A DNA stretch of 64,000 bases. It comes from an uncultured Chlamydiae bacterium (lineage in GTDB: Bacteria > Chlamydiota > Chlamydiia > Chlamydiales > SM23-39). A program made the position numbers and the translations under genes. The stretch is from contig CAWHDP010000002.1 of the NCBI GenBank assembly GCA_963828125.1, forward strand, positions 1,472,001 to 1,536,000, in the 5' to 3' direction. The notes under the pieces are model-generated. The model was not told the origin of the DNA. It saw only the letters and a list, made by a program, of their open reading frames with translations, and searched no databases. Of the stretch, positions 32,638 to 54,005 are shown in pieces (position 1 is the stretch's first letter; each line of letters starts with the position of its first letter).

Positions 32638-33146
32638 ATGGGATTTATGGTACCACAGCTATGCATTTTACTGTGCAGCGCTATGCATAAAAAAACTGCA
32701 CAGCTTCCGCAAGCAGCTAACAACAAGCATGTTATGAGAAATGAATAACCTTGGGGTATTTCTAACCCAGCCGCGGCAAACAAAATAAGAGGAATATGAT
32801 GCCACATCAAGATTTTAGTGGCTAGTCAAAGACAGGTGGCATTCGACGTAATCGCAGCTATTTGACCTTCCAGCACTTCTCAACAACAGCGCTCTTCCGA
32901 GACGGATCGCTTGAAAGCGGGCTCAACTCGAACTTGGTTGCTGTGAGCGGTGGGGCTGGTCAGTTTGCCATTTTTATCCGTGGGCATTGCTGGGTTCATG
33001 AAGAACGGTATTATCAAAAAATTATTGCATCTCAAGCAGCTTCCAAGACTTTTTGAGAGATTACTTTTAGTGGATTTTCAGTAAAGTTTGCGTTATATTC
33101 ACAACCTTGTTACCATGCTCGCATAATTTTTGTTTTGAGGTTAATC

Positions 33147-34469
33147 ATGAGTGCAATAGGTAGGGTTCCTCCTTTTGAGTTTCAATTCCTAACATTGGGT
33201 GATCCCGCTGTCAGCCCAACACTTCGATCTTGGGCCGATAAAAAAAAGGGAGATCCAGAGTACAACTTTCGACTAGAGGCGGCTGAAAAAATCGGAGAAT
33301 GCTATGCTGACAAGTCTGTATTATTAGATCTTAGCAGATTAAACCTCACCGCGCTCCCGCCTGAAATAGGGGAGCTCCAAAATTTAACAGAGCTCAAATT
33401 GTGGAAAAACAAGCTCACCGCGCTCCCGCCTGAAATAGGGAAGCTCCGAAATCTAACAACTCTCGACCTCGAAGGAAACCAGCTCACCGCGCTCCCGCCT
33501 GAAATAGGGGAGCTCCAAAATTTAACAGAGCTCCAGCTGTCTCTAAACAAGTTCGCCACGTTCCCCCCTGAAATAGGGAAGTTGCGAAATCTACAAAATC
33601 TTCGCCTGAACTCGAACCAGCTCACCGTGCTCCCGCGTGAAATAGAGGAGCTCCGAAATCTAACAAATCTCGACCTGTGGGGAAATGAGCTCACCGTGCT
33701 CCCCCGTGAAATAGGGAAACTCCGCAATCTACAAAATCTTCTCCTGAACGCGAACCGGCTCACCGTGCTCCCGTCTGAAATAGAGGAGCTCCGAAATCTA
33801 ACAACTCTCCACCTCGCAGGAAACCAGCTCACCGCGCTCCCGCCTGAAATAGGGAAACTCCAAAATTTAACAGAGCTCACCCTGTTTCAAAACCAGCTCA
33901 CCGTGCTCCCCCGTGAAATAGGGGGACTCCGAAATCTAACAAATCTCCTCCTGCAAGAAAACCGCCTCACCGCACTCCCGTCTGAAATAGGGGAGCTCCG
34001 AAATCTAACAACTCTCCACCTCGAAGAAAACCAGCTCACCGCGCTCCCGCCTGAAATAGGGAAGCTCCAAAATTTAATGAGGCTCTTCCTGCAAGGAAAC
34101 CAACTCACCATGCTCCCGTCTGAAATAGGGGGACTCCGAAATCTAGGAGAGCTCGATCTGCAAGGAAACCAACTCACCATGCTCCCGTCTGAAATAGGGG
34201 GACTCCGAAATCTAGGAGAGCTCGATCTGCAAAGAAACCAACTCACCGTGCTCCCGTCTGAAATAGGGGGACTCCGAAATCTAAGAGAGCTCTTCCTGCA
34301 AGGAAACCAACTCACCGTGCTCCCGTCTGAAATAGGGGAGCTCCGAACAAAGTTATATCTGAAAGGAAACCCGGAGCTCCTCCTGTTGATTAAAAAGTGT
34401 CTCTCACTGGTAGATGGCTTTCAGGATATACGACAAGTGGTCAACGCCTTCGAATCCCAGAAGGACTGA
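33147..34469 (+). CDS. Leucine-rich-repeat protein (candidate secreted effector)
   Basis: About 15 tandem 23-aa LRRs (NQLTALPPEIGKLxNLTxLxL) encoded by 69-bp repeats. Confidence 0.92.
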   Translation: MSAIGRVPPFEFQFLTLGDPAVSPTLRSWADKKKGDPEYNFRLEAAEKIGECYADKSVLLDLSRLNLTALPPEIGELQNLTELKLWKNKLTALPPEIGKLRNLTTLDLEGNQLTALPPEIGELQNLTELQLSLNKFATFPPEIGKLRNLQNLRLNSNQLTVLPREIEELRNLTNLDLWGNELTVLPREIGKLRNLQNLLLNANRLTVLPSEIEELRNLTTLHLAGNQLTALPPEIGKLQNLTELTLFQNQLTVLPREIGGLRNLTNLLLQENRLTALPSEIGELRNLTTLHLEENQLTALPPEIGKLQNLMRLFLQGNQLTMLPSEIGGLRNLGELDLQGNQLTMLPSEIGGLRNLGELDLQRNQLTVLPSEIGGLRNLRELFLQGNQLTVLPSEIGELRTKLYLKGNPELLLLIKKCLSLVDGFQDIRQVVNAFESQKD

Positions 34470-34610: not shown

Positions 34611-34702
34611 GCCTTGGCTACAGCTTCTAAGAAAATTGAAATTCTTGCACATCAATTTGGGGGTTTGTTATACCGAAAATGACCCAAGAAAGGGGGGGAT
34701 CT

Positions 34703-37000
34703 ATGAGTCTTGTAAGATGGGTCGCGTTGAGCGGGGCCTTCGCAGCTATGATCACAGGTGGAACCGTCATCGCCTCAAATAAAGGCGTGGTGCTGCTGGG
34801 CGGAGAAAACAATACGAATCGAAGCGGCCCTCCCATCGCTTACCTCTTCTCGGCGAATGGGCAGGCGTCCCTTTTGCCTCCTGCCGCTTTTCCCGATGGC
34901 GGATATATATATAGCGTTGCGATTACTGATAGTGGGGCTGGCCTCATCGGAGGGATGAATTTCGGCGGCGTCCAGCCTCCCATCGCCTATCTCCTCTCTC
35001 CGAGTGGAACTATAACATCGCTTTTAGATGCATCGGCGTTCCCAAACGGCGGATTCATCTATAGCGTGGCTATGGCGCAAACGGGCGAAGGGATCATCGG
35101 CGGACAGAATAGCGCCGGCCCCCCAATCGCCTCTTTCGTCTCCTCAAATGGAACGTTGACTCCCATCGTATTGGAGGGAGATTCTATGTATTCCTCATCT
35201 GCATTGATGAATAACGTTGCTATCGCGAGCAGCGGCATTGGAATCCTTGGAGGACAGAGCGACGTCTCTCCGACTCCTCCGCTCTCTTATTCAGTGGCTT
35301 CCGATGCGGTTGCATCGTTTTTGGGACCCCCTGAACCCGATTTCCCGAGCGGTGCAGGGATCCTCAGCGTCTCCATTGCCGAGAATGGCGCTGCCCTGCT
35401 AGGGGGAATTAATTATGGCAGCGGCCCTCCAATATTGTATCGGCTCTATCCAGATGGAACTTTTACCAATCTTTCCACTGCAACCGGCCTCCCTGCGTCA
35501 GGATATATTAACAGCGTTTCAATTGCAGAAAATGGGATGGGTCTCATCGGAGGAACGGGGCCTACTTACCCGATCGCCTGCTTTGTCGCGCCAGATGGAG
35601 CGCTCACCGTTCTTGGAAGTGGAATCTTTCCTGCCGGAAGCATTTACAGTGTTGCCATCAACAATAGCTGTGCGGGAATCATCGGCGGACAGAGTGGCGC
35701 CGGGGAACAACCCCCGATCGCCTATCTCGTAGCTCCAAACGGCGCTCTTACAACTCTTGGCGATGGGGTTTTCCCTCCCAGTGGGGTCATCAATAGCGTA
35801 GCAATCAGTGAAAGTGGGGTCGGATTGATCGGAGGACAGAACAATCCCAATGGGAGCGGCTCTGCCATTGCTTATCTGGTGGCTCCGAACGGAACCCTCA
35901 CATCTCTGAGCTCTAATGGCGCCTTTTCCAGCAGCTCAACGGTCTCTAGCGTCGCCCTCTCCGATGCCATCGCCCCCCAATCCTTCGGCCCCTACAGCAG
36001 CCTGGCCAACGCCCTTTTCGCCCTCACCCATACCCTCGAAGATCATTACACAGGACGGAAAACTTTCTTCAAAAACACAAATGGCGCGCAAATCGCCGAC
36101 CTCGATTTGCTCGCAGGCCGCCGGCTGATTCCCCCGAAAAAGTCACCTCCCCCAAAACCCTGCCCCATCTGGAGCGTTTGGGGAGGCCCTTTTGGCGCCT
36201 TGATTTACCAAGACGCAAAGAAGGCCATACCAGCCTTCAGCGATGAAATAGCGGGTGTAATTGCGGCTGCCGAGTACAATGGGATCAAAAACGTCGCAAT
36301 CGGCGGCGGTCTCGCCTACGCTTTCACGTTCGTCAATTACAAAGAGAGCGTCGGCCACGCCTCGATCAACCAAGAATATGCCCTCATCTACGCCAATTTC
36401 AATCGCCCCTATTTCTTTTTCAATGCGGCTCTCTGGGGCGGCCTCTATCAACTCAGCAATAAGCGGCATACCCTCGGCTTCATCACCTCCACTTCAAACC
36501 CTAAGGGTTGGCTCTTATCGCCCCACGTAGAGTTGAGTACGCCTTTTCTTGTCAAAGGAGACTGGTTTGGCGTCGATCCATTTGCCATGGTCGATTGGGC
36601 CAATAGCTGGCAAGATTCGTTCCGCGAAAAAGGGAGATCGGGACTCAACATCTCCCTCAATAGCCAATACTCCTCCCTCCTCCGCAGCGAAATAGGCGTC
36701 CGCTTCTATGAAACCCTCAAATATGGCTGGGGTTGTCTCAAAATCGAGGAAAAAGCAAGCTACGTCAATAAAGCGCCTTTCCACACAGATCCAGGAACAG
36801 CCGCTTTCATAGGCGCCTTTTCTTCATTTGGCGTTGAGACCTTTAGTAGCTCCGTCCAAAATTTGGGTTTAGCGCAAATCGCATTCCACTTCACCCCTTC
36901 CCATCCGAAGTATCCCTATGGCTCAATCGACTATCAGGGCGAGTTCGGCTCTTCCTTTCAATCGCACCTTCTCGTGTTAGAGCTCGGACAATCTTTTTAA
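34703..37000 (+). CDS. Autotransporter with an eight-repeat passenger domain
   Basis: Signal peptide, eight ~49-aa repeats, C-terminal ~280-aa beta-barrel ending in F. Confidence 0.82.
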   Translation: MSLVRWVALSGAFAAMITGGTVIASNKGVVLLGGENNTNRSGPPIAYLFSANGQASLLPPAAFPDGGYIYSVAITDSGAGLIGGMNFGGVQPPIAYLLSPSGTITSLLDASAFPNGGFIYSVAMAQTGEGIIGGQNSAGPPIASFVSSNGTLTPIVLEGDSMYSSSALMNNVAIASSGIGILGGQSDVSPTPPLSYSVASDAVASFLGPPEPDFPSGAGILSVSIAENGAALLGGINYGSGPPILYRLYPDGTFTNLSTATGLPASGYINSVSIAENGMGLIGGTGPTYPIACFVAPDGALTVLGSGIFPAGSIYSVAINNSCAGIIGGQSGAGEQPPIAYLVAPNGALTTLGDGVFPPSGVINSVAISESGVGLIGGQNNPNGSGSAIAYLVAPNGTLTSLSSNGAFSSSSTVSSVALSDAIAPQSFGPYSSLANALFALTHTLEDHYTGRKTFFKNTNGAQIADLDLLAGRRLIPPKKSPPPKPCPIWSVWGGPFGALIYQDAKKAIPAFSDEIAGVIAAAEYNGIKNVAIGGGLAYAFTFVNYKESVGHASINQEYALIYANFNRPYFFFNAALWGGLYQLSNKRHTLGFITSTSNPKGWLLSPHVELSTPFLVKGDWFGVDPFAMVDWANSWQDSFREKGRSGLNISLNSQYSSLLRSEIGVRFYETLKYGWGCLKIEEKASYVNKAPFHTDPGTAAFIGAFSSFGVETFSSSVQNLGLAQIAFHFTPSHPKYPYGSIDYQGEFGSSFQSHLLVLELGQSF

Positions 37001-37115: not shown

Positions 37116-37586
37116 ATGGATGGAAAACCGAAAGAAGGTTCAGTGGAGTCGCTCGTCGATGCTTTGCGTCTCCTCCTGATGGGAAGGAAAGCCAGCACTC
37201 AAGAGGCGATCTGTTCCGCCTTGGAAAAATTGGGATACGAAATCAACCAAACTAAGGTCTCTAGATTGCTCCGCAAGATCGGCGCGATCAAGATCGAAAA
37301 CGAACACGGGCAAACAGTCTATTCGCTCCCTCGCGAACCCGCTCCCCCCTCAATGAATACTCAAATTAGAGATTTGATCGTCAATATAGTGGCCAATGAG
37401 GCTTTAGTCGTTATTTTCACAAGCCCCGGATCTGCCTCAATGGTCGCGCGGGTTCTCGATTACAACCAGATCACCACCGAAATTCTCGGAACCATTGCTG
37501 GAGACGACACGATCTTTGTCGCCCCCAAAACAATCAAAGATATCCGAAAATTAACGGAAGAAATCAAGGGCTTACTCCAAAAATAG
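37116..37586 (+). CDS. argR: Arginine repressor
   Basis: TQEAI, NQTKVSR, TSPGSA, GTIAGDDT. Confidence 0.95.
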   Translation: MDGKPKEGSVESLVDALRLLLMGRKASTQEAICSALEKLGYEINQTKVSRLLRKIGAIKIENEHGQTVYSLPREPAPPSMNTQIRDLIVNIVANEALVVIFTSPGSASMVARVLDYNQITTEILGTIAGDDTIFVAPKTIKDIRKLTEEIKGLLQK

Positions 37587-39014
37587 CGTTTCCTCAACTG
37601 TAGACAGCAGCTTCTCCTTCTCTATCAGCCAAGCAGCGACTTTTTCAGCTTTGATCGCATGCAAAGCAAACTGCCTATTGACCTGATTAGACGAGGTGCC
37701 CCCTTGGCTATCCCTTGTATTGACAATCCTTCTCAAATCGAGCATGGCCGCCACATCTTCAGCAAAAAGGGGAGAAAAATCTTGCAGTTCTCGCAAAGAG
37801 AGTTCTTCCAGTTTCCGATCGCTATCCAAACAATATCGGACAACCTTCCCCACAATCGCGTGCGCCTCCCTAAATGGAACGCCTTTCAAAGAGAGATAAT
37901 CGGCAAGTTCAGTAGCATTTAAAAGCCCCTCCTGAGTGGCCTGGAGCATTTTATCCGGCCGGACATGAAGGGTTTCTATCACTCCCCGGTAAATGCAGAG
38001 CGATGATTCAAGAGTCTTTACAGTATCAAAAAGGGGCTCTTTGTCTTCTTGCATATCTTTATTGTAGGCAAGAGGAAGCCCCTTCAGCAGGGTCAAAGTG
38101 GAGAATAGAGAACCATACACTCTTCCTGTCTTCCCTCTGACAAGTTCGGGTACGTCGGGATTTTTCTTCTGCGGCATAATACTGCTCCCAGTACAATAAG
38201 CGTCGTCCAGTTCGATAAAAGCAAACTCTTGACTGCACCAGAGGATCATCTCTTCGCTCAGGCGAGAAAGATGAGCCATGATCAGCGCCCCATGCGCTAG
38301 AAACTCGACGCAAAAATCGCGGTCGCTCACTGCATCGATACTATTTTCATAAAGAGAGTCAAATTTGAGAAGATCGGCCACCAGCCCTCGATCGATCGGC
38401 AGCCCTGTCCCCGCCAACGCACAAGCTCCAAGGGGCAGTTGATTGATGCGAGGCCAGCTCCCGATCAAACGATCCATATCCCGCCCCAAGCTCGCCGCAT
38501 AAGCCAATAGATGGTGGGCAAAAAGGATCGGTTGGGCCCGCTGAAGATGGGTGTATCCAGGCATCATCACATCGATGTTCTCCTTGGCTTTTTGCACCAG
38601 CGCTTCGGATAAGCCTTGCAAGAGAGAGACGACCCTTACGACTTTAGCCCTTAAATAAAGATGGAGATCCAATGCGACCTGATCGTTCCGGCTTCTCGCC
38701 GTATGCACTTTCCCAGCCAAAGGGCCGATGAGCGCCTTCAGCTCCTGCTCTATCTTCATATGGATATCTTCATCTGCCGCTGCAAAGGAGACGGCCCCTT
38801 GAGAAAGACGGTCTCTGATTTCGATGAGCCCTTTTTTGATTTTTTGGGCCTCTTCAAGGGTCAAAATCCCAACAGCTCCCAGCATTTGCACATGGGCCAC
38901 CCCCCCCAGAATGTCCAGACTGGCCAGTTCGCAATCAAAAAAGATCGAAGCGGTAAACGCCTCGACCTGAGACTGTGTCGCTTTCGTGAATCTTCCGTCC
39001 CAGGCTTTAGCCAT
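37572..39014 (-). CDS. argH: Argininosuccinate lyase
   Basis: HTARSRNDQ, GSSIMPQKKNP, YNKDMQEDK. Confidence 0.97.
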   Translation of the reverse strand: MAKAWDGRFTKATQSQVEAFTASIFFDCELASLDILGGVAHVQMLGAVGILTLEEAQKIKKGLIEIRDRLSQGAVSFAAADEDIHMKIEQELKALIGPLAGKVHTARSRNDQVALDLHLYLRAKVVRVVSLLQGLSEALVQKAKENIDVMMPGYTHLQRAQPILFAHHLLAYAASLGRDMDRLIGSWPRINQLPLGACALAGTGLPIDRGLVADLLKFDSLYENSIDAVSDRDFCVEFLAHGALIMAHLSRLSEEMILWCSQEFAFIELDDAYCTGSSIMPQKKNPDVPELVRGKTGRVYGSLFSTLTLLKGLPLAYNKDMQEDKEPLFDTVKTLESSLCIYRGVIETLHVRPDKMLQATQEGLLNATELADYLSLKGVPFREAHAIVGKVVRYCLDSDRKLEELSLRELQDFSPLFAEDVAAMLDLRRIVNTRDSQGGTSSNQVNRQFALHAIKAEKVAAWLIEKEKLLSTVEETLFLE

Positions 39015-40221
39015 ACTGGGCTCCCGCAATCAACCTTAAAGCGTTTAATTTGATAAACCCTTTAGCGTCTGTCTGATCATACCCAAGGGTCTCCTCCATG
39101 CTCGCCATTTGCGGCTGATAGAGAGAATAAGGCGAACTACGCCCAGTCACAATCACATTTCCTTTATAGAGAGTAAGAAAAACCTTGCCAGCCACCCTCT
39201 TCTGACTCTGGTGAACCGCTGCCATGAGAAAATCCATTTCAGGACTAAACCAAAATCCATTGTAGATGATCTGCGCGATTTTGGGAGCGAGGGTCTCTTT
39301 CAGAAGAATCACCTCCCTATCCAGAGTCATCCCTTCCAAATCCAAATGGGCTTTGAGGAGAATCGTCCCGCCAGGAGTCTCATACGCTCCACGCGATTTC
39401 ATCCCAACAAATCGACTTTCCACAAGATCCACTCTCCCAATCCCATGCCTTCCTCCTACCTCATTGAGATATTTGAACAGTTCCACAGAACCTACGATCT
39501 TTGCCCCTGTTCCCATCTCTTCCACCGAAATCGGATTTCCCCCTTGAAACTCAATCGCGATTTTCATCGCTTCATCGGGGGTATTTTCTAGCGAAACCGT
39601 CTTGAGAAACATCTCCTCCGAAGGAGTGTACATCGGGTCTTCCAGTTTTCCTCCCTCAAAACTGGTGTGCATCAGATTCGCATCAATGCTGTACGGCTTT
39701 TCCAAAGTAGAGGTGACAGAAATGCCATGGGCGCTCGCGTATTTTAACAGATCGCCCCTTCCCGAAAATTGCGCTAAAAATTCCCGATCTTTCCAGGGGC
39801 TAATGATCTCTGCGTGAGGAAGGTGCGTCAAAAGGGTCAGCTCAAAGCGCACCTGATCATTTCCTTTCCCCGTCGCCCCGTGTGCAAAGGATGCGATCTT
39901 TTCCCGTTCCGCAAGCTCCACTAATTTCTTCGCAATCAAAGGCCTTGCCAAAGCGGTGCCTAACAGATATTTCCCCTCATAAACAGCATGCGCCTTCAGA
40001 GAAGGAAAAATAAAATCTTCCACAAATTCTTTTTGCAAATTGGCAATATGAACCTCCGACGCCCCTACGGCAAAAGCCTTCTTCTTCGCCGCCTCTAAAT
40101 CCTCCTCTTGCCCCACATCAGCAATGAAACAGACGACATCGTAACCTTTCGTTGTCAGCCACTTCAAAATGACCGACGTATCGAGCCCGCCGCTATAGGC
40201 TAAAATCACTTTCTTCTTCAT
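39007..40221 (-). CDS. argG: Argininosuccinate synthase
   Basis: [34 protein letters not shown]. Confidence 0.97.
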
Positions 40222-43200
40222 TTTTTCCCTCCCATAAGAGCCATGATTAACGCTTTTTGTACATGCAACCGATTTTCACTTTGTTGAAAAATGACCGATT
40301 GGGGTGAATCGGGCAACGTTTCGCTCACCTCTTTTCCCCTGACCATCGGCATACAATGCATGAATATAGCCTCCGGTTTTGCAAGCGCCATGAGCTCTTC
40401 ATTGACTTGAAAACCGGCAAAAAGCTCCTCGTTCGCACCGTTTTCAAACCCCATGCTGGTCCAAACATCTGTATACACTGCGTGAGCGTCTAGAACCGCT
40501 ATATGAGGCGAAGTGTGCTCAGTGATCGATCCCCCTCTTCTAAAAGCCCTCGCTAAAATTTCCGCTTTAGGACCCCGTCCAACGGGACAGCAATAGTGCA
40601 GATGGACGCCCATCATCGGCGCCATGAGGAGAAGACTGTGGAGAATATTGTTCCCGTCCCCGATATAAGTCACTTTAACCCCTTCAAGAGAGCCAAATGT
40701 TTCCTGCAAAGTGAGGAGATCGGCCAAAATCTGGCAAGGATGGTGATCATCCGAAAGGGCGTTGATGATAGGAATAGAGGATACTTTCCCCATGCGGCTT
40801 AAATCTTCGTCGCTATGAGTCCGGATCATAATCCCGTCGCAATACCCCGCAAGCACTCTGACCCAATCTTCAGGTTCCTCTTTCTTTCGATCGCCGCTTA
40901 CACTCTCTATCACCGTACCGCCCAATTCTTGCATCGCCACTGTGAAACTAAATCGGGTCCGCAAAGAGGGTTTCTCGAACAGCATGGCTAAGTGCTTTCC
41001 CTTGAGCGCCAGAGCCGTTTGACCCCCTTTCCTTAAATGTTTCAACTCGCTGGCCAGGTTGAGTAAAGATCGAATTTCGCTAGAGGTGAGCTCCTCTCCG
41101 GTAATGAGATGTTTAGTCGAATGGATCCATTGATTGAGAGATTGCACGCTATGCTCCGATCTGATTATGAATGCTTTTAATAAAGCTGTTGCAGCGCTTG
41201 CCGTCGTGGCATGGCAAATACGCCGTGTGATGGCAAGACGCCTTAACTCTGTCTCCCCTTTGCCGATTGCAATGATCAGTTCAATATCCTTTGCGTCCGG
41301 ATCGAAAGCCTGGCAAGGGATGCCGTGAGTCTGAAGGAACTCTAAAGTGGGAGAGGTTGCATATAAAGTCAGAGGCAGCGCTAAGAGATCGCGCGCCATC
41401 TCAATGCTTATACCACAGCCGAGAAGGGCCCCGCTACCCGGTTTGGGAAGCGGATACCCGGAAGCAATTTGCGCCTTTGCATAGCTTGTAGCAAAATCGC
41501 TATCTAGCCCCATCACCTCTCCTGTCGATTTCATTTCGGGACCCAAAATCGAGTCCACATTGTCAAATTTAGAAAACGGGAAAACAGCCTCCTTGACAGC
41601 AAAATAGGGGAGTACAGGAGGCTCAACATACCCTTGCTCTTTCAAAGAAGTTCCCAATAGACAACGGGTCGCTATTTTGACGAGATCGATCCCAGTCGCT
41701 TTTGAGGTGAAGGGGGCGGTTCGGGAGGCTCTAGGATTGACCTCCAAGACGTAAATCCCGTTGTTCTGAATGGCAAATTGAATATTGAGGAGCCCAACAA
41801 AATGGAGGCCCAAAGCGATCTGCTTCGTCTGTTCCAAAAGCTCTTTTTGCAAGGAGGCAGATAAACTAAAGGGAGGGAGAGAGCAGGCAGAGTCTCCCGA
41901 ATGGATGCCCGCCGGCTCAACATGCTCTAAAATCCCCGGAACATACACGTCGGATCCATCGGATATCGCATCGATATCGACCTCTGTCGCATCCATTAAA
42001 AACCGCTCTATCAGCACCGGCTTTTCAGCAGAGGCTGAAAAAGCCTCCAAAAGACAGCTTTCTAATTCGCCCTCCTGGTTGACAATAGCCATCGCTCGCC
42101 CCCCCAAAACAAAAGAGGGTCTGACAATCAGAGGATAGCCCATCTGCTTCCCAGCAGACAACCCCTCCTCTAATGAATGGACGATCAAGTTGTCCGGCTG
42201 TTTGAGGCCCAAAGTATTTAAAAATTGCTTGAAACTAGCCCGATCTTCTGTTTTTTCAATCCATTCGGACGTCATGCCAAGGAGCGGCACTCCAGCTTTT
42301 ACAAGAGGACCTGTCAAGTTTAAAGGAGTCTGCCCCCCATACTGTACAATCACGCCAAGAGGTTTTTCTATATCGACAATCGCCAAAATATCTTCCGCAG
42401 TCAGTGGAGAGCAGTAGAGCTTGTCTGCGCAATCGTAATCGGTCGAGACCGTTTCCGGATTGCAGTTGACGATGATCGTCTCATAGCCCTCTTCCTTCAA
42501 GGCTTGAATCGCATGCACGCAGCTATAATCAAATTCGATCCCCTGGCCAATTCGGGAAGGTCCGCTCCCTAAAATCATCATCTTAGGGAGATCTGTAGGA
42601 TAGGCCTCGCACTCCTCTTCATAGCTGGAGTAAAGATAAGCGATCGATGTGGCAAATTCAGCAGCGCAAGAATCGATCCGCTTAAACCCAGGGACAATCC
42701 CCCATTCTCCTCTTTTCGCTCTGATCTCCTCTTCGCTACAGCCAGAAAAAATACCGATTTGCACGTCGGAAAAACCCAATTTCTTCAAAGCGCGCAGATC
42801 TTCTTTATCCTCTATTTTTTTCTCCGCCTGGACAAGCTCCTCGATTTGGTGAAGAAACCAAGGATCGATCTGGGTCAAATCGTTGACTTGGGCCAAAGAC
42901 ATCCCCTCTCGAAAAGCATCAAAAATCGCCCAAAGCCTAAAGGGACCCGGAATGTCCAAAGACCGGTGTTTAGGAATCGATCCAACCTCCATGCTTCTCA
43001 TCCCTTTAAGAAGAGCCTCCTGAAACGTCCTTCCGATCGCCATCGCCTCCCCCACAGAGCGCATCTGAGTCCCCAATTTTTCCTCGCAACCTTTGAACTT
43101 CTCAAAATTAAAACGGGGTATTTTAACCACCACATAATCCAGGGTCGGCTCAAAAGAGGCCGGAATCTGATTCCCCGTTAATTCGCTCGAAAGCTCCGGC

Positions 43201-44198
43201 AAGGTGTAACCCACGGCCAGCTTCGCCGCGACTTTAGCAATCGGAAAACCGGTCGCTTTAGAGGCCAAAGCAGACGATCTGGAGACTCGGGGGTTCATTT
43301 CGATCACAACCATTCTCCCGTTTTTCGGATCTATTCCGAATTGCACATTCGACCCGCCCGTCTCTACGCCAATCGCTCGTAAAATCGAAAAAGAGGCGTC
43401 CCTCATAGTTTGATATTCTTTATCGGTCAATGTTTGGGCAGGAGCTACTGTGATCGAATCCCCCGTATGAATCCCTAAAGGATCGATATTTTCAATAGAG
43501 CAGACAATGATGCAGTTATCGCTTCGATCCCGCACAACCTCCATTTCGAATTCTTTCCAACCCACCAAAGCCTCATCAAGAAGAATTTCTTGGCCTCGCG
43601 GAGTTTGATGTAAAGCAGCTTTACATAAAGAAAAAAACTCCTCTTCCGTGTGGGCAATCCCGCTCCCGCTTCCCCCTAAAATAAAAGAGGGGCGTACAAT
43701 AATGGGCAGTCCCAAAGCTCCCAAAACCTCCTTCGCCTCTTCGATATTTTTAGCAGATCCCGACTTTGGTAAATCCAACCCTAGAGTCTGAATGGTTTGT
43801 CGAAACAAAGAGCGATCTTCGGCAAGCTCAATGGCCTCAGGCGTTACGCCAAGAAGTTCCACTCCTAGAGCCGCAAGACAGCCGCTTTTTGCCAGCTCGA
43901 GAGCCACATTGAGCGCCGTTTGCCCCCCCATAGTCGGCAAGATCGCGCAAGGTTTTTCTTTTTCAATGACTTTCATCACAAATTCTTTCGTAATCGGCTC
44001 AATGTAGACGACGTCCGCCACCGATAGATCGGTCATGATCGTCGCTGGATTTGAATTGATGAGAACGACCTTGTAGCCCTCTTCGCGCAGCGCAATACAA
44101 GCTTGGGTCCCCGCGTAATCGAATTCGCAAGCCTGCCCGATCACAATCGGACCCGATCCGATGAGAAGGATTTTTTGAATATCAGTTCGCTTTGGCAT
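40218..44198 (-). CDS. carB-argF: Carbamoyl-phosphate synthase large subunit fused to ornithine carbamoyltransferase (CarB-ArgF)
   Basis: CarB motifs ([15 protein letters not shown], two ATP-grasp halves), then OTC motifs [24 protein letters not shown] from about nt 41117 down; one uninterrupted frame. Confidence 0.93.
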
Positions 44199-45282
44199 GT
44201 TCGTTTTCCATTAATCTGACAAATTGGTCGAATAAAACCTGTAATTCATGAGGTCCTGGACTTGCTTCCGGATGTCCCTGAAAGCTAAAGGCCGGTTTGT
44301 CCTTTCTCGCAATGCCAGCCACGCTTTTGTCAAAAAGAGAGCGGTGCGTCACCATCAAACAAGGAGGAACCGTTTTTTCATCGACCGCAAAACCGTGGTT
44401 TTGGCTGCTGATCCATACTTTGCCTGTAGCAATCTCCAAAATCGGATGATTAGCTCCATGATGGCCCTGTTCCATTTTCACCGTTTTTGCCCCGCTAGCG
44501 AGCGCCAGTAGCTGATGCCCTAAACAAATGCCAAATATAGGAATCAGGGACTCAAGGAGAATCCGGATCGTTTGAATCGCACCATAGCAAGCAGCCGGAT
44601 CGCCCGGACCGTTCGATAAAAATATCCCATCCGGCTTGAGCTTTAAGATAGCGTCGGCCGTCGCATTGGGAGGGACGACCGTTAGACGACAGCCCGAGGC
44701 GACGAGTTTTTGCAAAATAGCGTTTTTGATTCCAAAATCAAGGACAACAACGTGAAGAGAAGCATCTTGAACTCCCCATTCGGATAAGAAGTCGGAGGCG
44801 ACTTCCTGGGTCATGTTTTTCCCCTCTAAGCCAGAAAAACCCTTGGCTTGGCGCAAAGCGAAATCGACGTCGACTTTTCCTCCCATAATACAGGCATTTA
44901 AGCTCCCCTTCGTCCTTAAGATATGGGTCAATTTCCGAGTGTCAATCTCCGATAAAGCCACCACATTCTGGTTTTTAAGGAGACTTTGCAAATCGCCCGT
45001 CGCCCGCCAATTGCTAGGCCACTGAGCCAGCTTGCGCATGACGACCCCGCCCGCCCAAATTTGATCCGACTCCCTATCGTCCTCATTGACGCCAACATTC
45101 CCAATATGGGGATAAGTAAAACTGATGATCTGTCCCGCATAGGAAGGATCGGTTAAAATCTCTTGATACCCGGTCATTGCCGTATTGAAGACGAGCTCCC
45201 CGACAAAAACCCCCTCCGCCCCGACCGATTCCCCCCAAAGAAGAGTTCCGTCCTCAAGCGCTAATAATCCGTCCTTTTCCAT
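44182..45282 (-). CDS. carA: Carbamoyl-phosphate synthase small subunit
   Basis: [41 protein letters not shown]. Confidence 0.97.
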
Positions 45283-45289
45283 CTTTGGC

Positions 45290-45469
45290 TCAAATTCTCG
45301 GATAAGTAAAGCTAACCGCCGGCGGCGAGTAAAAAAAAGCGCTCAAGGGCTCTAACTGACCTACCGGACAGTGATTCAGCACCACCTCTCCTATAGTGAT
45401 TCCTCCGGCTCCTAATGATTCTATCCAAAAAAGCATCCCGTCAGGGGTTATCGATTTTTCGTTTTTCAT
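45290..45469 (-). CDS. 59-aa leader ORF homologous to the CarA N-terminus (absent from the ORF track)
   Basis: AAGGAGAG RBS; MKNEKSITPDGMLFWIESLGAGGITIGEVVLNHCPVGQLEPLSAFFYSPPAVSFTYPRI aligns without gaps to CarA residues 11-60. Confidence 0.7.
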   Translation of the reverse strand: MKNEKSITPDGMLFWIESLGAGGITIGEVVLNHCPVGQLEPLSAFFYSPPAVSFTYPRI

Positions 45470-45487
45470 AAACTCTCCTTGTTGTTA

Positions 45488-45525
45488 TGCGATTTATTAT
45501 ACACGGAAATGAATATTTATTCAAC
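45488..45525 (-). promoter_or_regulatory. ARG box(es) overlapping the promoter of the leader-carA operon
   Basis: AATGAATATTTATTCAAC at 45508-45525 plus a degenerate partner at 45488-45505; minus-strand TTGAAT-N17-TATAAT. Confidence 0.8.
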
Positions 45526-45592
45526 AAATAGATTCGATGTGAACGGCAAGCTCCTTGCTGTTAGCATGTTAAATATAAATATGGTGAGTTTT

Positions 45593-45623
45593 ATTGACTA
45601 AATATTCATTTTAAATATATAAT
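45593..45623 (+). promoter_or_regulatory. ARG box overlapping the argC promoter
   Basis: ATTGACTAAATATTCATT at 45593-45610 covers the -35; TTGACT-N18-TATAAT. Confidence 0.8.
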
Positions 45624-45643
45624 GAACGGCAACAACAGAGGAA

Positions 45644-46696
45644 ATGATGATTAAAGTAGGGGTTGCGGGAGCCACTGGATATGTAGGGATTGAATTGATT
45701 CGGATTCTTGCCGGGCATCCCCGAGTTGAGCTTGTCTATGTCGCAACTCAATCCCACATAAATGAGGCGCTGAAGACGGTATACCCGCACCTTCAAAGGA
45801 TCGTCGACATGAACTGCTCTCCGTTGGATGCGGCTGAGATGGCAAACCAGTGCGACGTTGTTTTTACGGCTCTTCCCCATGGGATTGCATTAAGCCTTGC
45901 TGAGCCGATCCTCAAAGCGGGGAAAAAACTCATTGATCTTGGAGCCGATTTTCGGCTGAAAAACCGCGCGCTTTATGAACAGTGGTATGGGAAACCCTCG
46001 GCCTCTTCCGAACAGCTCGAATCTGCCGTCTATGGCCTTCCAGAAATTATATCGCCAAAGATCATCCAAGGATCTGATCTGATTGCAAATCCTGGGTGCT
46101 ACCCCACCTGCATCGCCCTCGGAGCCAGTCCTCCGATCTTTCATAAGATCGTAAAACTAGAGGGGATGATTTTCGATGCTAAATCGGGAGTTTCAGGCTC
46201 TGGGAAAAGCCTTTCTCTCAATTCCCATTTTTGTGAAGTCGCTGAAAATTTTAAAGCCTACGCAATAGCTGGAAGCCATCGCCACACTCCAGAAATCGAA
46301 CAAATTTTAAGCGAGCTCACAAAGACTCCTGTAACGGTCCAATTTACGCCCCATCTCATCCCGATGATCCGGGGACTTTTAGTGACCGGCTATTTCCAGC
46401 TTCAAAAAGAGATCTCTGCAGAGGCCGTTTGGCACATTTATTCACAGTACTATAAGAACAAACCCTTCGTCCGATTATGTCCGCTTGGGACGCTTCCTCA
46501 AACAGCCAATGTCAGAGGGTCTAATTACTGCGATATCGGCCTTGCGCTCGATCTCCGGACGAACACCTTGATTGTCGTCAGCGTGATTGACAATCTTGTC
46601 AAAGGGGCCGCAGGGCAAGCGGTCCAAAATATGAATATCTTGTTTGAACTGCCGGAAACGATGGGGCTCAATCAGCTATGTCCAACTTATCCATGA
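45644..46696 (+). CDS. argC: N-acetyl-gamma-glutamyl-phosphate reductase
   Basis: GATGYVG, NPGCYPT, SGVSGSG, HRHTPEI, DNLVKGAAGQA. Confidence 0.97.
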   Translation: MMIKVGVAGATGYVGIELIRILAGHPRVELVYVATQSHINEALKTVYPHLQRIVDMNCSPLDAAEMANQCDVVFTALPHGIALSLAEPILKAGKKLIDLGADFRLKNRALYEQWYGKPSASSEQLESAVYGLPEIISPKIIQGSDLIANPGCYPTCIALGASPPIFHKIVKLEGMIFDAKSGVSGSGKSLSLNSHFCEVAENFKAYAIAGSHRHTPEIEQILSELTKTPVTVQFTPHLIPMIRGLLVTGYFQLQKEISAEAVWHIYSQYYKNKPFVRLCPLGTLPQTANVRGSNYCDIGLALDLRTNTLIVVSVIDNLVKGAAGQAVQNMNILFELPETMGLNQLCPTYP

Positions 46697-47907
46697 AGAA
46701 AAAACATATTGAAGGAGGCATTTCAGCCCCTCTTGGCTTTATGGCCTCCGGGGTGCCCGCAGACTTAAGGGGAAAGGGGGACGTCAAAAAAGACGTCGCC
46801 CTCATTTTCAGCGAAGTCCCTGCCGTAGCTGCCGGCGTCTTTACGAAAAATTCTGTCAAAGCGGCGCCTATTTTGGTGACCCAAGAAGCGATCCAGCAAG
46901 GGCTCTTGCAAGCGATTGTCATCAATAGCCGCAATGCGAACGCCTGCACAGGCCGGCAAGGGATCACAGATGCAAAAGAGATGTGCAAGCTCGCAGCTGA
47001 CGCGTTGCAGATCGATCCGGGACAGGTGGCCGTCAGCAGCACCGGCGTCATTGGGGTTCCCCTCCCGATGACCCGGCTCGCTCCAGGGATTCTGGCCGCC
47101 GCCGCGCATCTGGATAAAAAGGGAAATTCCGATGCAGCGGTTGCGATCATGACTACCGATACCTATCCGAAAGAGCTCGCCCTTCAATTGGAATTGGGGG
47201 GAGCTAGAGTCACGATCGGAGGCGTGGCCAAAGGTTCCGGCATGGTACATCCCGATATGGCGACGATTCTAGGTTTTATCACGACCGACGCGAACATTTC
47301 TCTCAATGCGCTTAAAATGGCTCTAAAACAAGGGAGCGACGACTCCTTTAACATGATCAGCGTCGATGGAGATACGTCGACAAACGACATGGTTCTCGCC
47401 ATGGCCAATGGGCTGGCGGGCAATCCTCAAATCGAGATCGGAACCCCTATTTTTGAAGAATTTTGCGAGGCATTGAAATATGTCCTCATTTTTCTAGCCA
47501 AAGAGGTCGCCCGCGACGGAGAGGGGGCCACTAAGCTTCTAGAAGTGTGCGTACAAGGAGCGAGCTGCGTCGAAGAGGCGAGACTTGCGGCTAGATCCGT
47601 TTGCAGCTCTCTTCTCGTCAAGACAGCTATTTTTGGAAAAGACGCCAATTGGGGACGGATCCTTTGCGCTCTCGGTTATTCAGGAGCCTCTTTTGATCCA
47701 AATCAGGCAGATCTTTATATCGGCAACGTGCAAGTGATGGGGAAAGGGGCGCCCCTTCTTTTTGATGAGGCGGCAGCCTTAGACATCCTCTCCGAATCCC
47801 ACGTATTGGTGACGGCCCATCTCCATGCAGGCAACGCCTCGGCCACAAGTTGGGGATGCGATCTTTCCTACGATTATGTAAAGATCAATGGAGCCTATCG
47901 AACATGA
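46693..47907 (+). CDS. argJ: Bifunctional ornithine acetyltransferase/N-acetylglutamate synthase
   Basis: STGVIG, IMTTDT, KGSGMVHPDMAT, DGDTSTND, DGEGAT. Confidence 0.97.
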   Translation: MKKKHIEGGISAPLGFMASGVPADLRGKGDVKKDVALIFSEVPAVAAGVFTKNSVKAAPILVTQEAIQQGLLQAIVINSRNANACTGRQGITDAKEMCKLAADALQIDPGQVAVSSTGVIGVPLPMTRLAPGILAAAAHLDKKGNSDAAVAIMTTDTYPKELALQLELGGARVTIGGVAKGSGMVHPDMATILGFITTDANISLNALKMALKQGSDDSFNMISVDGDTSTNDMVLAMANGLAGNPQIEIGTPIFEEFCEALKYVLIFLAKEVARDGEGATKLLEVCVQGASCVEEARLAARSVCSSLLVKTAIFGKDANWGRILCALGYSGASFDPNQADLYIGNVQVMGKGAPLLFDEAAALDILSESHVLVTAHLHAGNASATSWGCDLSYDYVKINGAYRT

Positions 47908-48695
47908 GACCGAAAATCGTTGTGATCAAATACGGGGGCGCTGCCATGCAAACTCCGGCCCTTATTCAAACAACGCTCCAAGACGTCGTCCGCCTCAAGA
48001 GGTTGGGAATACAGCCCGTTCTGGTTCATGGAGGCGGACCGGAAATATCAAAGATGTGTCAACAAATGGGGATCGTTCCCGCTTTTGTCAATGGGCTGCG
48101 GGTTACGGATAGAGAAACCCTTGAAATCGCGCAAATGGTGCTTGTCGGAAAAATCAATAAAGAACTTGTCTCCCTACTCAACCAAGAAGAAGGGAGGGCA
48201 GTCGGTCTCTCCGGACAAGACGCCAACTTGATCTTGGCCAAACAAGCGGATAAGAACCTTGGATTCGTAGGAGAAATTGAGCAGGTGAACCCCGAGATTC
48301 TCATCCTGCTCATTGAAGCGGGATTCATCCCCGTGATTGCCCCAATGGCAACGTCCAAAAGATCTCAAAGCTACAATATCAATGCCGATAGCGCGGCGAG
48401 CGAGATCGGAGCCGCTCTTCAAGCAGATTCTCTCATTCTGCTCACCGATGTAGAAGGAGTTTTGAAAGACCCTAAAGACCCCAGCACAAAGATCGATATA
48501 ATAAAAACCTCTGAATGGGGCGCCGTAGTCGAAAGCGGCAGCTTGAAAGGGGGAATGATCCCCAAAATAGAGGGGGCCTTAGCCGCGATTCAGAGAGGTG
48601 TGAATCAGGTGCATATTTTGGATGGAAGGGTTCCGAACGTCCTTCTCCTCCATTTTCAGGATCGGGAAACAAAAGGGACAAGCATCTATGTTTAA
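47904..48695 (+). CDS. argB: Acetylglutamate kinase
   Basis: KYGG, VHGGGP, GLRVTD, NINAD, GGMIPK. Confidence 0.96.
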   Translation: MRPKIVVIKYGGAAMQTPALIQTTLQDVVRLKRLGIQPVLVHGGGPEISKMCQQMGIVPAFVNGLRVTDRETLEIAQMVLVGKINKELVSLLNQEEGRAVGLSGQDANLILAKQADKNLGFVGEIEQVNPEILILLIEAGFIPVIAPMATSKRSQSYNINADSAASEIGAALQADSLILLTDVEGVLKDPKDPSTKIDIIKTSEWGAVVESGSLKGGMIPKIEGALAAIQRGVNQVHILDGRVPNVLLLHFQDRETKGTSIYV

Positions 48696-49887
48696 ATCCA
48701 AAACCGAAGAAATTGTGGCGCTCGACAAAAAGTATCTCATGAACACGTACAACCGATATCCGATCGCGATCGTGAAGGGGGATGGAATGGAGGTTTATGA
48801 CGCCGATGGGAAAAAATATCTCGATTTTCTTGGAGGAATTGCCGTAAACGTTTTAGGTCACTGCCACCCCAAAGTAGTCGATGCGATTATTGCGCAAGTC
48901 AAAGAATTGATTCATACATCGAATCTCTACTACACAAAGCCCGCTGCGGAATTGGCCGAATTACTCTCTTTAAACGGAGGGTTGGATAAAATCTTTTTCT
49001 GCAATTCAGGAGCCGAGGCCAATGAAGGCGCCATCAAACTGAGCCGCAAATACCAATGGAGAAAAGGGCGCCGGGAAAAATATAAAATCATTACAGCAAC
49101 CCATTCTTTTCACGGACGGACCCTCGCAGCTCTTGCAGCGACCCATAAACCCGAAATTCAAGAGGGTTTCGGTCCATTGCCCGATGGATTTCAAGCGGTC
49201 CCTTGGAACGACACTCAAAAATTCCTCGAGAGTATCGATGAGACAACCGCAGCCGTTTTAATCGAACCCATTCAAGGAGAAGGAGGGATCCACTCTGCCA
49301 CACGAGACTTTTTAGAAAAAATTCGGGCCGCATGCGATCGGGTAGGAGCCCTTCTGATCTTTGATGAAATTCAATGCGGCATGGGCCGCTCGGGAACCCT
49401 CTTTGCTTATGAAAATTTTGCCGTTAAGCCTGACGTCATTACTTTGGCTAAAGGGATTGCCAGCGGACTTCCCCTGGGCGCTATTTGCGCAACGAATGGA
49501 GCCGCTGAAGCGTTTCATCCAGGAGATCACGGGACGACATTCGGCGCAAATCCGGTCGCCGCGGCGGCCGCTCTAGCCACTTTAAAAGTTCTCATTGAAG
49601 AGAACTACCTTCCAAAGGTGGCTAAAATGGGCGCTCTTCTCATGGAAAAACTCCACGAACTCCAAATAAAATATCCGCAAGCCATCGCCGAAGTTCGGGG
49701 GCTCGGACTCATGATCGGGATAGAGCTCAAAATAGATCCGAAAATAGTGCTGCAAAAATGCCACGCTAGAGGGCTCCTTGCCAATGTGACAGCAGGAAAC
49801 GTCCTCCGCCTTCTTCCCGCCTACACAATTACTGCAAAAGAGATCGGCCAGGCCGTTTCCATTATCGAAAGCGCTATTGTTGGATAA
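48688..49887 (+). CDS. argD: Acetylornithine aminotransferase
   Basis: CNSGAEANE, SFHGRT, EPIQGEGG, DEIQCG, TLAKG, HGTTFG. Confidence 0.96.
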   Translation: MFKSKTEEIVALDKKYLMNTYNRYPIAIVKGDGMEVYDADGKKYLDFLGGIAVNVLGHCHPKVVDAIIAQVKELIHTSNLYYTKPAAELAELLSLNGGLDKIFFCNSGAEANEGAIKLSRKYQWRKGRREKYKIITATHSFHGRTLAALAATHKPEIQEGFGPLPDGFQAVPWNDTQKFLESIDETTAAVLIEPIQGEGGIHSATRDFLEKIRAACDRVGALLIFDEIQCGMGRSGTLFAYENFAVKPDVITLAKGIASGLPLGAICATNGAAEAFHPGDHGTTFGANPVAAAAALATLKVLIEENYLPKVAKMGALLMEKLHELQIKYPQAIAEVRGLGLMIGIELKIDPKIVLQKCHARGLLANVTAGNVLRLLPAYTITAKEIGQAVSIIESAIVG

Positions 49888-52904: not shown

Positions 52905-54005
52905 ATGAGGAACTATACAAACAAAACTGTTTATTTGGGAATGGACGTGCATAAAAAAACTTACGCCGTGACTGCAATTTGTGATGGTCAGGTCGTGAAG
53001 AAAGACACCTTAAAAGCAGACCCTGCCATTTTGGTAGCTTACTGCAAAAAATATTTTATTGGAGCCAAAATCGAGAGCGCTTATGAAGCTGGGTTTTGCG
53101 GCTTTTATTTACATCGATGTTTAAAAGCGCAGGGCATTACAAATATAGTGGTAGACGCAGCTGGAATGGAGGTTGCTGTCGGAGATCGAGTAAAAACAGA
53201 TAAACGAGACTCTCTGAAATTAGCCACTCATCTTTCAGTCGGAAGGTTGCGTGGAATACGCGTTCCTTCGGTCGAGCGCGAGGACTATAGGGCTGTAACA
53301 CGACTACGAGAAACCTTTACTCGGCAACGATCACGTTTTGCTTGCCAGTTAAAATCATTGCTTTTTCAACACGGCTTGATTCGCGCTGATGACAAGAAAA
53401 AAATCTCCGAAAAGTGGGCAAAAGTTCTCGAGACAATGCCACTATCTGCAGGGCTAAAATTTGCTATTGCAAATTATCTCGCCCAATGGCGCCAAATGAC
53501 CGCAAAAATCAAGGAAATAAATCGGGAACTGGCTGTTCAAGCACAGAAAGATGGGGCTATAGAGGCGATTTACAGGAGCGTTCCAGGAATAGGAGAGGTG
53601 TCCGCTCGAGTTTTGGCCAATGAGCTTGAAGACACTTTACAATTTAGCAATGAGAAAACACTCTTTAGCTATACGGGACTTACTCCGAGCGAATACTCAT
53701 CTGGCGAACACGTTCGCCAAGGCCATATTACTCGGCACGGGAAACCTATTTTGCGAAAAATATTGGTACAGACAGCTTGGAAAGCGATTGGCATAGACTC
53801 TTCTCTCGAAGAAATTTTTCTGAGGCTTTCAACCAGAATTGGAAAGAAAAGGGCGATTATAGGCATAGCAAGGCGATTGATTGGTCGCATCCACGCTTGT
53901 TTTAGAACGGGCGAATTGTATCGTATCCCATCAACTAAAAATGGAAAAGCAGAAGAGAAAAGCGTGGCTGTCCAAGAATCTCAGCTGGCTAACGTGACTC
54001 CGTAA
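52905..54005 (+). CDS. IS110-family DEDD transposase/recombinase
   Basis: GMDVHK, YEAG, KTDKRD (DEDD); PGIG and PSEYSSG catalytic-Ser loop. Confidence 0.96.
   Translation: MRNYTNKTVYLGMDVHKKTYAVTAICDGQVVKKDTLKADPAILVAYCKKYFIGAKIESAYEAGFCGFYLHRCLKAQGITNIVVDAAGMEVAVGDRVKTDKRDSLKLATHLSVGRLRGIRVPSVEREDYRAVTRLRETFTRQRSRFACQLKSLLFQHGLIRADDKKKISEKWAKVLETMPLSAGLKFAIANYLAQWRQMTAKIKEINRELAVQAQKDGAIEAIYRSVPGIGEVSARVLANELEDTLQFSNEKTLFSYTGLTPSEYSSGEHVRQGHITRHGKPILRKILVQTAWKAIGIDSSLEEIFLRLSTRIGKKRAIIGIARRLIGRIHACFRTGELYRIPSTKNGKAEEKSVAVQESQLANVTP

Follow-up and report, generated by a model that had tools for sequence, protein, structure and literature searches.

The Arginine Gene Cluster

The window, i.e., the whole stretch of 64,000 nucleotides that was analyzed, contains a complete arginine cluster at 37116–49887, which is composed of argC-argJ-argB-argD on the plus strand, a leader ORF followed by carA, carB:argF, argG, and argH on the minus strand, and argR. 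The carA gene (44182..45282, minus strand) is intact, encodes 366 aa and is the only carA found in the genome, which comprises 2.37 Mb in two contigs; the metagenome sequencing runs containing the stretch are from soil and freshwater, and the host is most probably an environmental chlamydia. It overlaps with carB, which is fused in frame to argF and encodes a protein of 1326 aa (40218..44198, minus strand) with a shortened, weak MGS-like region. This fusion is local to the lineage, because in three relatives (L138, L139, and L141) carB ends at 1058–1063 aa and is followed by a separate argF. The operon is closed by argG and argH (37572..40221, minus strand), on which argR (37116..37586, plus strand) converges, and the divergent argC-argJ-argB-argD operon occupies 45644..49887 on the plus strand. 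Coupling is common within the arginine cluster. The argJ gene (start at 46693, plus strand) lacks a Shine-Dalgarno (SD) sequence (+1.0 kcal/mol), and its start codon is part of an ATGA shared with the end of argC. Next to argR, two plus-strand genes encode a leucine-rich-repeat protein of 444 aa (33135–34469) and a repeat-rich protein of 773 aa, the end of which is autotransporter-like (34679–37000), both labels being given from reading of the sequence. An IS110-family transposase of 366 aa (52905–54005, plus strand) is encoded some 3 kb beyond the cluster.

With the queries used, neither a second carA or carB nor a pyrB-like match was found in the source genome. As there is one carA, one carB and no pyrB-like match, the carbamoyl-phosphate synthase (CPS) seems to be dedicated to arginine synthesis. 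The leader-carA transcript would start from a sigma70-like promoter, TTGAAT-17-TATAAT (45496..45524, minus strand), which matches the consensus and of which the −35 box is covered by an ARG-box-like palindrome (45509..45524); promoter and palindrome are kept in 7/7 aligned loci. A second ARG-box-like palindrome (45593..45610) covers the −35 box (TTGACT) of the divergent argC promoter. Both palindromes were labeled by their likeness to the ARG-box consensus. Since each of them covers a −35 box and an argR gene is linked, transcription of leader and carA is probably under the control of ArgR.

The distribution of this carA type is patchy. It is present in 0/13 genomes of the same genus, ten of which gave matches, mostly to a carA near 42% identity. 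Across the rest of the family it reaches a high score in 0/102 genomes; family f7 contributes several genomes that have it, and f24 one. The nearest relatives outside are found in Gammaproteobacteria (55–59%). This pattern suggests that the carA type moved sideways among chlamydial lineages.

The Leader Open Reading Frame

The leader ORF (P0001; 45290..45469, minus strand) encodes 59 aa and is a diverged duplicate of carA codons 1–60. It starts with an ATG preceded by AAGGAG at a distance of 5 nt; this SD sequence, AAGGAGAG (45473..45480, minus strand), is calculated to form a duplex of −8.6 kcal/mol with the 3′ end of the 16S rRNA of the same genome. It stands at the position of the ancestral carA SD and aligns with the carA start region of five leaderless relatives. 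In BLASTP, 23/50 residues (46%) are identical to residues 11–60 of the CarA encoded downstream, without gaps and with an E-value of 1e-12; the identity to carA at the DNA level is 81/150, and the score against the Pfam family CPSase_sm_chain is 20.5 bits, below the cut-off of 27. The ORF ends with TGA 7 nt ahead of the carA ATG. The only SD that carA has near this spacer (45283..45289, minus strand; 8 nt in locus L119) is a GAG overlapping the leader stop, for which −3.0 kcal/mol was calculated with the same 16S 3′ end. The original prediction, made from the letters of the window, had described a 59-aa peptide with a strong ribosome binding site, a gapless alignment to the CarA N-terminus and a stop 7 nt before a poorly equipped carA start, and this description is accurate in every part. 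P0001 is contained as a called protein in the protein collection, and two of its relatives were named 'carbamoylphosphate synthase small subunit' by JGI.

The leader frame contains Arg at 1/59 codons, an AGA, which accounts for 17% of Arg codons and is not rare. A run of control codons as in attenuators of the his/trp type is absent from the leader frame, and the relatives contain zero to two Arg near the end. The 7-nt spacer between leader and carA also holds no terminator of the kind such attenuators use; the sole terminator-like match on the minus strand lies inside the leader ORF (45328–45316), at a site where L119 has a different sequence. No relevant Rfam match was obtained at the leader locus. 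A small hairpin, CCC(C)-TGAC-GGG(G), is found in both loci available as DNA (45435–45448 in the window and leader codons 7–12 in L119); it is probably not general, since the matching residues differ in P0123, P0124, P0126, and P0149.

Leaders in Related Bacteria

The leader family consists of seven related proteins of 55–68 aa. Besides P0001, it includes P0002, which was found by protein search and is 78% identical to the leader, P0123, P0124, P0125, and P0126, which were added by an exhaustive profile search, and P0149 from a second search. The exhaustive search returned 26 matches, of which the other 22 are CarA pieces, full CarA proteins or repeats, as judged from eight of them. All seven leaders start at the same Met (P0002 is called nine codons earlier, the extension being the SD region) and the family ends in FTYP(R/K)x, with P0124 ending four residues later. 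Pairwise identities range from 37 to 83%, and length changes among the seven comprise whole codons throughout.

A metagenome scan with a carA motif, which is blind to the leader, yielded two loci. In L119, encoding a CarA of 80% identity, the leader P0125 is found in the same position ahead of its own carA; L120, with a CarA of 70% identity, has no leader. The leader is known as DNA in two loci, the one in the window and L119. The leader P0149 probably accompanies the CarA P0005, as both come from the same source. A trace of a further leader is visible in the CarA P0015, the N-terminal extension of which permits, in a shifted frame, FTYP[R/K]I-stop 8 nt before the true ATG, so that a spacer of 8 nt can be deduced. 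Such a reading is allowed by 0/20000 control 21-mers, and none of six further extended CarAs tested shows a shifted-frame leader end of this kind.

Within the CarA clade of the window, ten leaderless loci were seen as DNA. A profile search covered 137 loci, 127 of them with a carA start and at least 250 nt upstream, with some places represented more than once. An additional CarA-like piece turned up at just two of them, the locus in the window and L119. No second leader was found by whole-genome search with CarA in the 103 genomes of the own family and a phylum sample of 400, nor by search with the leader profile in the 129 genomes of the G266 family, an order sample of 400 and a class sample of 400; these samples overlap, and genome G131 was left unscored. 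A metagenome scan with the leader alignment gave 148 pattern matches and 0 confirmed, a viral scan for the leader 0 matches, and the ESM Atlas no usable match. The general weight of the findings is limited because the leader family is small and narrow. No description of such a carA leader was found in the open-access literature; one study on chlamydiae deals with arginine breakdown and not with the present cluster (PMC8242063).

Origin of the Leader

The CarA clade comprises about 40 proteins with identities of 62–86%. Five leaderless relatives have the same two ARG-box-like palindromes and the promoter, and their carA ATG aligns with the leader ATG of the window. Because these relatives carry the boxes and the SD directly on carA, the leader is to be seen as the first of two copies left by a tandem duplication of the carA 5′ end, and it holds the ancestral SD. 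That the leader arose by duplication is, from these alignments, almost certain. In L119, GAGAAGAC precedes both the leader start and the carA start and, judged from this repetition, is the mark of the duplication join inside the SD. Synonymous sites between the leader and its own carA are saturated (pS 0.75 in the window and 0.82 in L119), so the duplication is old and there was no recent copying; the same saturation rules out gene conversion with carA as the source of the conservation. A quick CarA tree, which is weakly resolved, places the leader-bearing CarAs outside a branch of support 97 that contains most of the leaderless ones, and groups the leaderless P0034 (L116) with the leader-bearing CarAs; it neither supports nor contradicts a single origin of the leader. 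In L116 (1480–1503) the bases upstream of the leaderless carA resemble the SD region of the L119 leader, and argC is not upstream. This locus may represent the collapse of a duplicate to a single copy. The birth of the leader gene can be traced, since both the ancestral state, with promoter and SD on carA, and the derived state, with a selected duplicate ahead of it, are known, and the residues kept and lost in the leader can be mapped onto a well-known enzyme.

Conserved Blocks and Selection

The alignment of the seven leaders shows two conserved blocks. Block 1 (residues 10–31; 45377..45442, minus strand), with the pattern G-x-LFW-x-x-S-x-G-x-x-G...E, has a mean pairwise identity of 0.69, and block 2 (residues 52–59; 45293..45316, minus strand) of 0.73, with FTYP invariant in 7/7 leaders and R/K replacing His59 of CarA. 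The middle part (residues 32–51; 45317..45376, minus strand) is variable, with a pairwise identity of 0.33, and replaces a CarA motif that is 99% conserved in the CarA subclade. Between the window and L119, 27/38 residues are kept in the blocks vs. 3/16 in the middle (Fisher p 0.0007, with blocks chosen post hoc). Besides the Met, 12 columns are invariant among the seven leaders and none of these falls within residues 32–51 (p 0.003, likewise post hoc); compared with a uniform model at a mean identity of 0.56, for which 9.1 invariant columns are expected on average, this count is no excess (P 0.19). Rate variation among sites is modest, with LG and LG+G4 differing by 3.8 log units.

The leaders of the window and L119 are 56% identical, with dN 0.38, dS 0.94 and a ratio of 0.40, for which gap placement is uncertain; for carA the identity is 80% and dN/dS is 0.056. 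Over the same 60 codons, the leader is 56% and CarA 97% identical. Four-fold sites differ at 7/14 positions in the leader blocks and at 81/125 in carA, which calls for about 0.8 substitutions per site or more. Under a model that retains only the open frame, 55% identity is reached in 1/3000 runs at 0.6 substitutions per site and in 0/3000 at 0.8 or more, where the identity is 25% or less; the observed identity is reached in 10% of the runs at 0.4 substitutions per site. The share of identical codons is not above that of carA (16/26 in the leader vs. 136/282 in carA, p 0.22); a general RNA-level constraint on the leader was therefore rejected, and the constraint looks to be at the protein level, perhaps except for the 3′ end. 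Here the leader overlaps with the carA initiation region, and 5/7 codons of the FTYP block are also identical as DNA between the two loci. A fold model built from the seven sequences predicts strands at residues 3–8, 11–19, 24–32, and 51–57 (mean pLDDT 65, pTM 0.36); the single-sequence fold model of CarA has a pLDDT of 34.

In sum, the comparison shows the leader to be a selected peptide rather than a spacer, with two blocks kept and the middle free, and it is very probable that it is translated and under selection. Reservations on selection come from the invariant columns, which are no more numerous than under the uniform model, and from the 10% of open-frame-only runs that arrive at the observed identity at 0.4 substitutions per site.

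The T8 Tract and the Arg4 Frame

The original prediction had drawn attention to a T8 tract in the leader and to a +1 frame behind it that reads through four Arg codons into the carA Met without a start codon of its own, and it had proposed an arginine-sensing leader using frameshift, stalling or coupling. The features as such are real. The tract is present at 45331..45338 (minus strand), and the reading frame of carA extends upstream without a stop through 20 codons, ALFFTRRRRLALLIREFEPK, bounded by a TGA at 45345–45343; this stretch reads TRRRR and contains no ATG, GTG, or TTG. With T7 instead of T8, a leader-CarA fusion of 428 aa would result. The length of the tract, which read data were to confirm, is unchanged in contigs of 3/4 metagenome runs, namely X1, which may be the source run, X3 from the study of X1, and X5 from another study (a 151-nt contig), and for X2 no listed contig covers the tract. 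An assembly error is ruled out by these three runs, which cover the T8 without letter change or gap. In the crude gene set of the own genome (1364 ORFs of at least 200 aa), 382/9422 coding windows of 180 nt (4.1%) contain off-frame runs of four or more Arg codons, 114/9422 (1.2%) tracts of T8 or longer, and 35/9422 (0.4%) an Arg4 run together with an A/T run of at least 7, the latter combination having been picked after the fact.

A ribosome slipping on T8 into the +1 Arg4 frame would produce an arginine-dependent leader-CarA fusion. The intact fusion frame after loss of one T, the reality of the tract and the rarity of its combination with Arg4 speak for this idea, but the relatives speak against it. 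The Arg4 run CGC CGC CGG CGG (45316..45327, minus strand) is the +1 reading of the leader codons TCG CCG CCG GCG, a by-product of the residues S-P-P-A, and it is not conserved. The longest T run in the L119 leader is T4, and neither of its shifted frames has an Arg run; because its spacer is 8 nt, carA lies in the +2 frame of the leader, which is closed by a stop 17 codons upstream of carA. The frame relation between leader and carA is thus +1 in the window and +2 in L119 and P0015. In P0002, the segment FYPQPVVSF, which P0123 and P0124 share, could encode no more than two Arg in the +1 or the +2 frame, and the LFY of P0002 is incompatible with T8. Neither the slippery tract nor the open-frame relation that would characterize a programmed frameshift is conserved among the relatives. 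In addition, carA has its own ATG at a conserved position, and the sign of such control would be wrong: if carA could be reached only through Arg codons, a shortage of arginine would slow down the making of CarA. The frameshift sensor is ruled out as a family-wide device by L119, P0015, P0002, P0123, and P0124, and we regard it as highly improbable. The caveat in the original prediction that the Arg4 run may be coincidental fits the data, as it is a chance feature of this genome that the relatives do not have. Of the elements expected to be conserved in relatives, the ORF is kept in seven proteins, and the T8/Arg4 arrangement is lost in L119, P0002, P0123, and P0124. The prediction had held that such a loss would leave a decaying duplication; this does not follow, because the leader ORF itself is conserved.

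Translation of carA

In the two loci available as DNA, the leader has a strong SD (−8.6 and −8.3 kcal/mol) and carA a weak one (−3.0 kcal/mol in both), and the distance from leader stop to carA start is 7 nt in the window, 8 nt in L119 and, by deduction, 8 nt for P0015. The starts of leaderless carA genes score −4.1 to −9.2 kcal/mol in 8/9 cases; the exception, L115 (−2.6 kcal/mol), has an equally weak carA SD yet no leader, which counts against a coupled, selected leader. A stop near the downstream start, combined with a strong upstream and a weak downstream SD, is the arrangement found in coupling uORFs, for which distances below 50 nt are described (PMC13285730). A hairpin occluding the carA start was rejected, as the folds are no stabler than those of shuffled sequences (z +0.45 and +1.85). 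Coupling by re-initiation does not require such a hairpin, and as none that hides the start was found, it is simpler to assume that ribosomes re-initiate once they have reached the leader stop. The leader P0124, ending in IWENR, would fit a change of TGA to TGG, with translation continuing to a new stop in an ATGA overlap, the 8-nt distance being the same. Taken together, these sequence features make it likely that carA is translationally coupled to the leader, one of the possibilities raised originally. The suggestion that a partial carA duplicate was co-opted stands as far as a retained duplicate with two selected blocks in seven proteins is concerned, and falls for the frameshift sensor.

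Possible Roles of the Leader Peptide

A tandem duplication of the first ~60 carA codons almost certainly placed a short copy ahead of the full gene. As the comparison shows, the short copy retained the promoter, which is probably ArgR-controlled, and the strong SD, and carA was left with the GAG overlapping the leader stop. Because the leader kept the strong SD and carA has only this GAG, ribosomes would load at the leader, pass on to carA 7–8 nt further and subsequently to the overlapping carB-argF, argG, and argH. When FTYP(R/K) is at the transferase center, the N-terminal strands would be outside the tunnel, and a pause at this point would cover the carA start and cut the costly carbamoyl-phosphate step, with no frameshift being involved. 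Arginine or a pathway intermediate would, by analogy with the fungal leader peptide ahead of the same subunit, be the natural trigger.

We therefore consider, as a tentative first choice among several readings, that the leader peptide acts as a throttle of carA in cis, and as rather unlikely that such a throttle would be triggered by arginine. Metabolite-induced arrest leaders are known, among them the fungal arginine attenuator peptide (AAP) ahead of an arginine-pathway subunit (PMC10501990). In its most specific version, the duplicated CarA N-terminus would be an arrest peptide that stalls at FTYP(R/K) at high arginine or a high intermediate, thereby shutting down carA-carB-argF-argG-argH, the stall perhaps being released by a partner such as free CarB binding to the strands; this version, too, is on the unlikely side. 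The link of the leader to arginine consists in its genomic place, as it contains a single AGA Arg codon, at which P0126 encodes Lys. The leaders differ in their last residue (I, I, M, G, S, with a four-residue extension in P0124), unlike the fixed ends at which termination arrest occurs, and the codons for R-I, K-G, and R-S could persist merely as purine-rich, SD-like DNA for carA. Moreover, nearly all invariant residues are ancestral strand residues of CarA, and block 1 lies 28–49 residues from the stop, so that a kept fold explains the conservation at least as well as an arrest motif does.

Another reading is a coupled leader that encodes a trans-acting microprotein, a small β-sheet remnant of the CarA N-terminal domain that would be made in excess over CarA and bind to CarA or CarB as assembly helper or competitor. 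We hold this to be possible and slightly less probable than the throttle in cis. The kept residues are strand residues of the parent CarA, the four-strand model (mean pLDDT 65, pTM 0.36) is compatible with it, and leader-specific hydrophobic changes (Gly17 to Met/Ile and Val20 to Leu/Phe, each in 7/7) resemble the re-packing of a smaller core. However, the first CarA strand (LLAL) is not retained and the best-conserved CarA segment, 33–51, is lost, a segment which we take to line the ammonia tunnel and to face CarB (S35, M36, and D45; E. coli numbering matches the CarA of the window). For a competitor, co-induction with the enzyme it inhibits would also be an awkward sign. Much the same modest probability is given to the reading that the leader is kept because its good SD determines how much is made of carA and the following genes, with residual protein conservation resulting from weak constraints, i.e., the initiation region, the carA SD overlapping the leader 3′ end, and avoidance of harmful peptides. 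This agrees with the SD strengths and the 7–8 nt spacer, with the apparent stop shift of P0124 to an ATGA overlap, with the purine-rich last codons of all leaders, and with an invariant-column count not above the uniform model. It accounts less well for block 1, which reaches codon 31, far from both initiation regions, and keeps W, F, E, S, and G while 7/14 four-fold sites differ; a useless direct repeat would also be expected to collapse to a single carA with a strong SD.

That the leader is a decaying partial duplicate without function is very improbable. Its protein changes much faster than CarA over the same 60 codons, it is absent from the ten other clade loci seen as DNA, and protein searches are biased toward intact ORFs, but L119 was found via the carA motif and not via the leader. 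As seven related proteins of 55–68 aa exist, the leader is not a decaying copy; they share an open frame, start and end at 37–83% identity. In a neutral simulation with 1.0 substitutions per site, 3% of the runs left both copies open, and 56% identity was reached in 0/4000. A dN/dS near 1, named beforehand as a sign of decay, is at odds with the value of 0.40 or lower, the seven intact proteins and the whole-codon indels. Microprotein and coupling alone thus stand close behind the throttle of carA in cis, and decay and frameshift stand far behind.

If the leader were an arginine-sensing arrest peptide, bacteria would have arrived by convergence at an analogue of the fungal AAP at the same enzyme, and a nascent-chain sensor at this locus would show how a piece of a gene can give rise to an arrest peptide. 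A microprotein would add to carbamoyl-phosphate synthase a regulator or an assembly factor that is new.

Comparison With Known Systems

The fungal AAP, encoded by the uORF of Neurospora arg-2 and yeast CPA1, is likewise a conserved peptide ahead of the small subunit of the arginine-pathway CPS, which is presumably a CarA homologue, and the present leader also directly precedes the gene of this subunit. It differs in being bacterial, SD-led, 55–59 codons long compared to 24, and derived from CarA, and it is known here from sequence. Because the CarA homology explains the ORF along its length, any likeness to the AAP would be convergent. In the presence of free arginine the AAP causes stalling, by which the main ORF is blocked (PMC10501990). 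Bacterial metabolite-sensing leaders are TnaC (PMC10501990) and SpeFL (10.1101/604074), which also precede operons of amino-acid metabolism and have a conserved C-terminal motif near the stop. In these systems a long spacer separates leader and downstream genes, and anti-termination within it brings about induction, whereas a stall at the present leader would repress, since its spacer is only 7–8 nt, and the last residue of the present leader varies.

MicroProteins are truncated paralogues that act on the complexes of their parent, and the leader is likewise a small piece homologous to one domain without the catalytic part. It differs from them in comprising 60 of the ~130 residues of the CarA N-terminal domain, in having lost the most conserved motif and in being the first cistron of the parent operon. 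A carA RNA motif of Polynucleobacter, a riboswitch candidate, was proposed to exert translational control before carA (PMC8632094); this motif is a non-coding hairpin in Betaproteobacteria, unlike the coding leader at the locus described here, which has no relevant Rfam match. A likeness in arrangement also exists to the coupling uORFs of PMC13285730, which have a strong upstream SD, a short distance or ATGA overlap and a weak SD of the main ORF, as here; the present uORF differs in that it is a paralogue of part of the main gene and under selection, and 'duplication' goes unmentioned in that paper. The leader would accordingly be grouped, by its sequence features, with coupling uORFs rather than with programmed frameshifts or classical attenuators. 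It is a conserved CarA-fragment gene that heads the arginine operon and probably hands ribosomes to carA, and the chlamydia-like environmental bacteria that have it form a small group.
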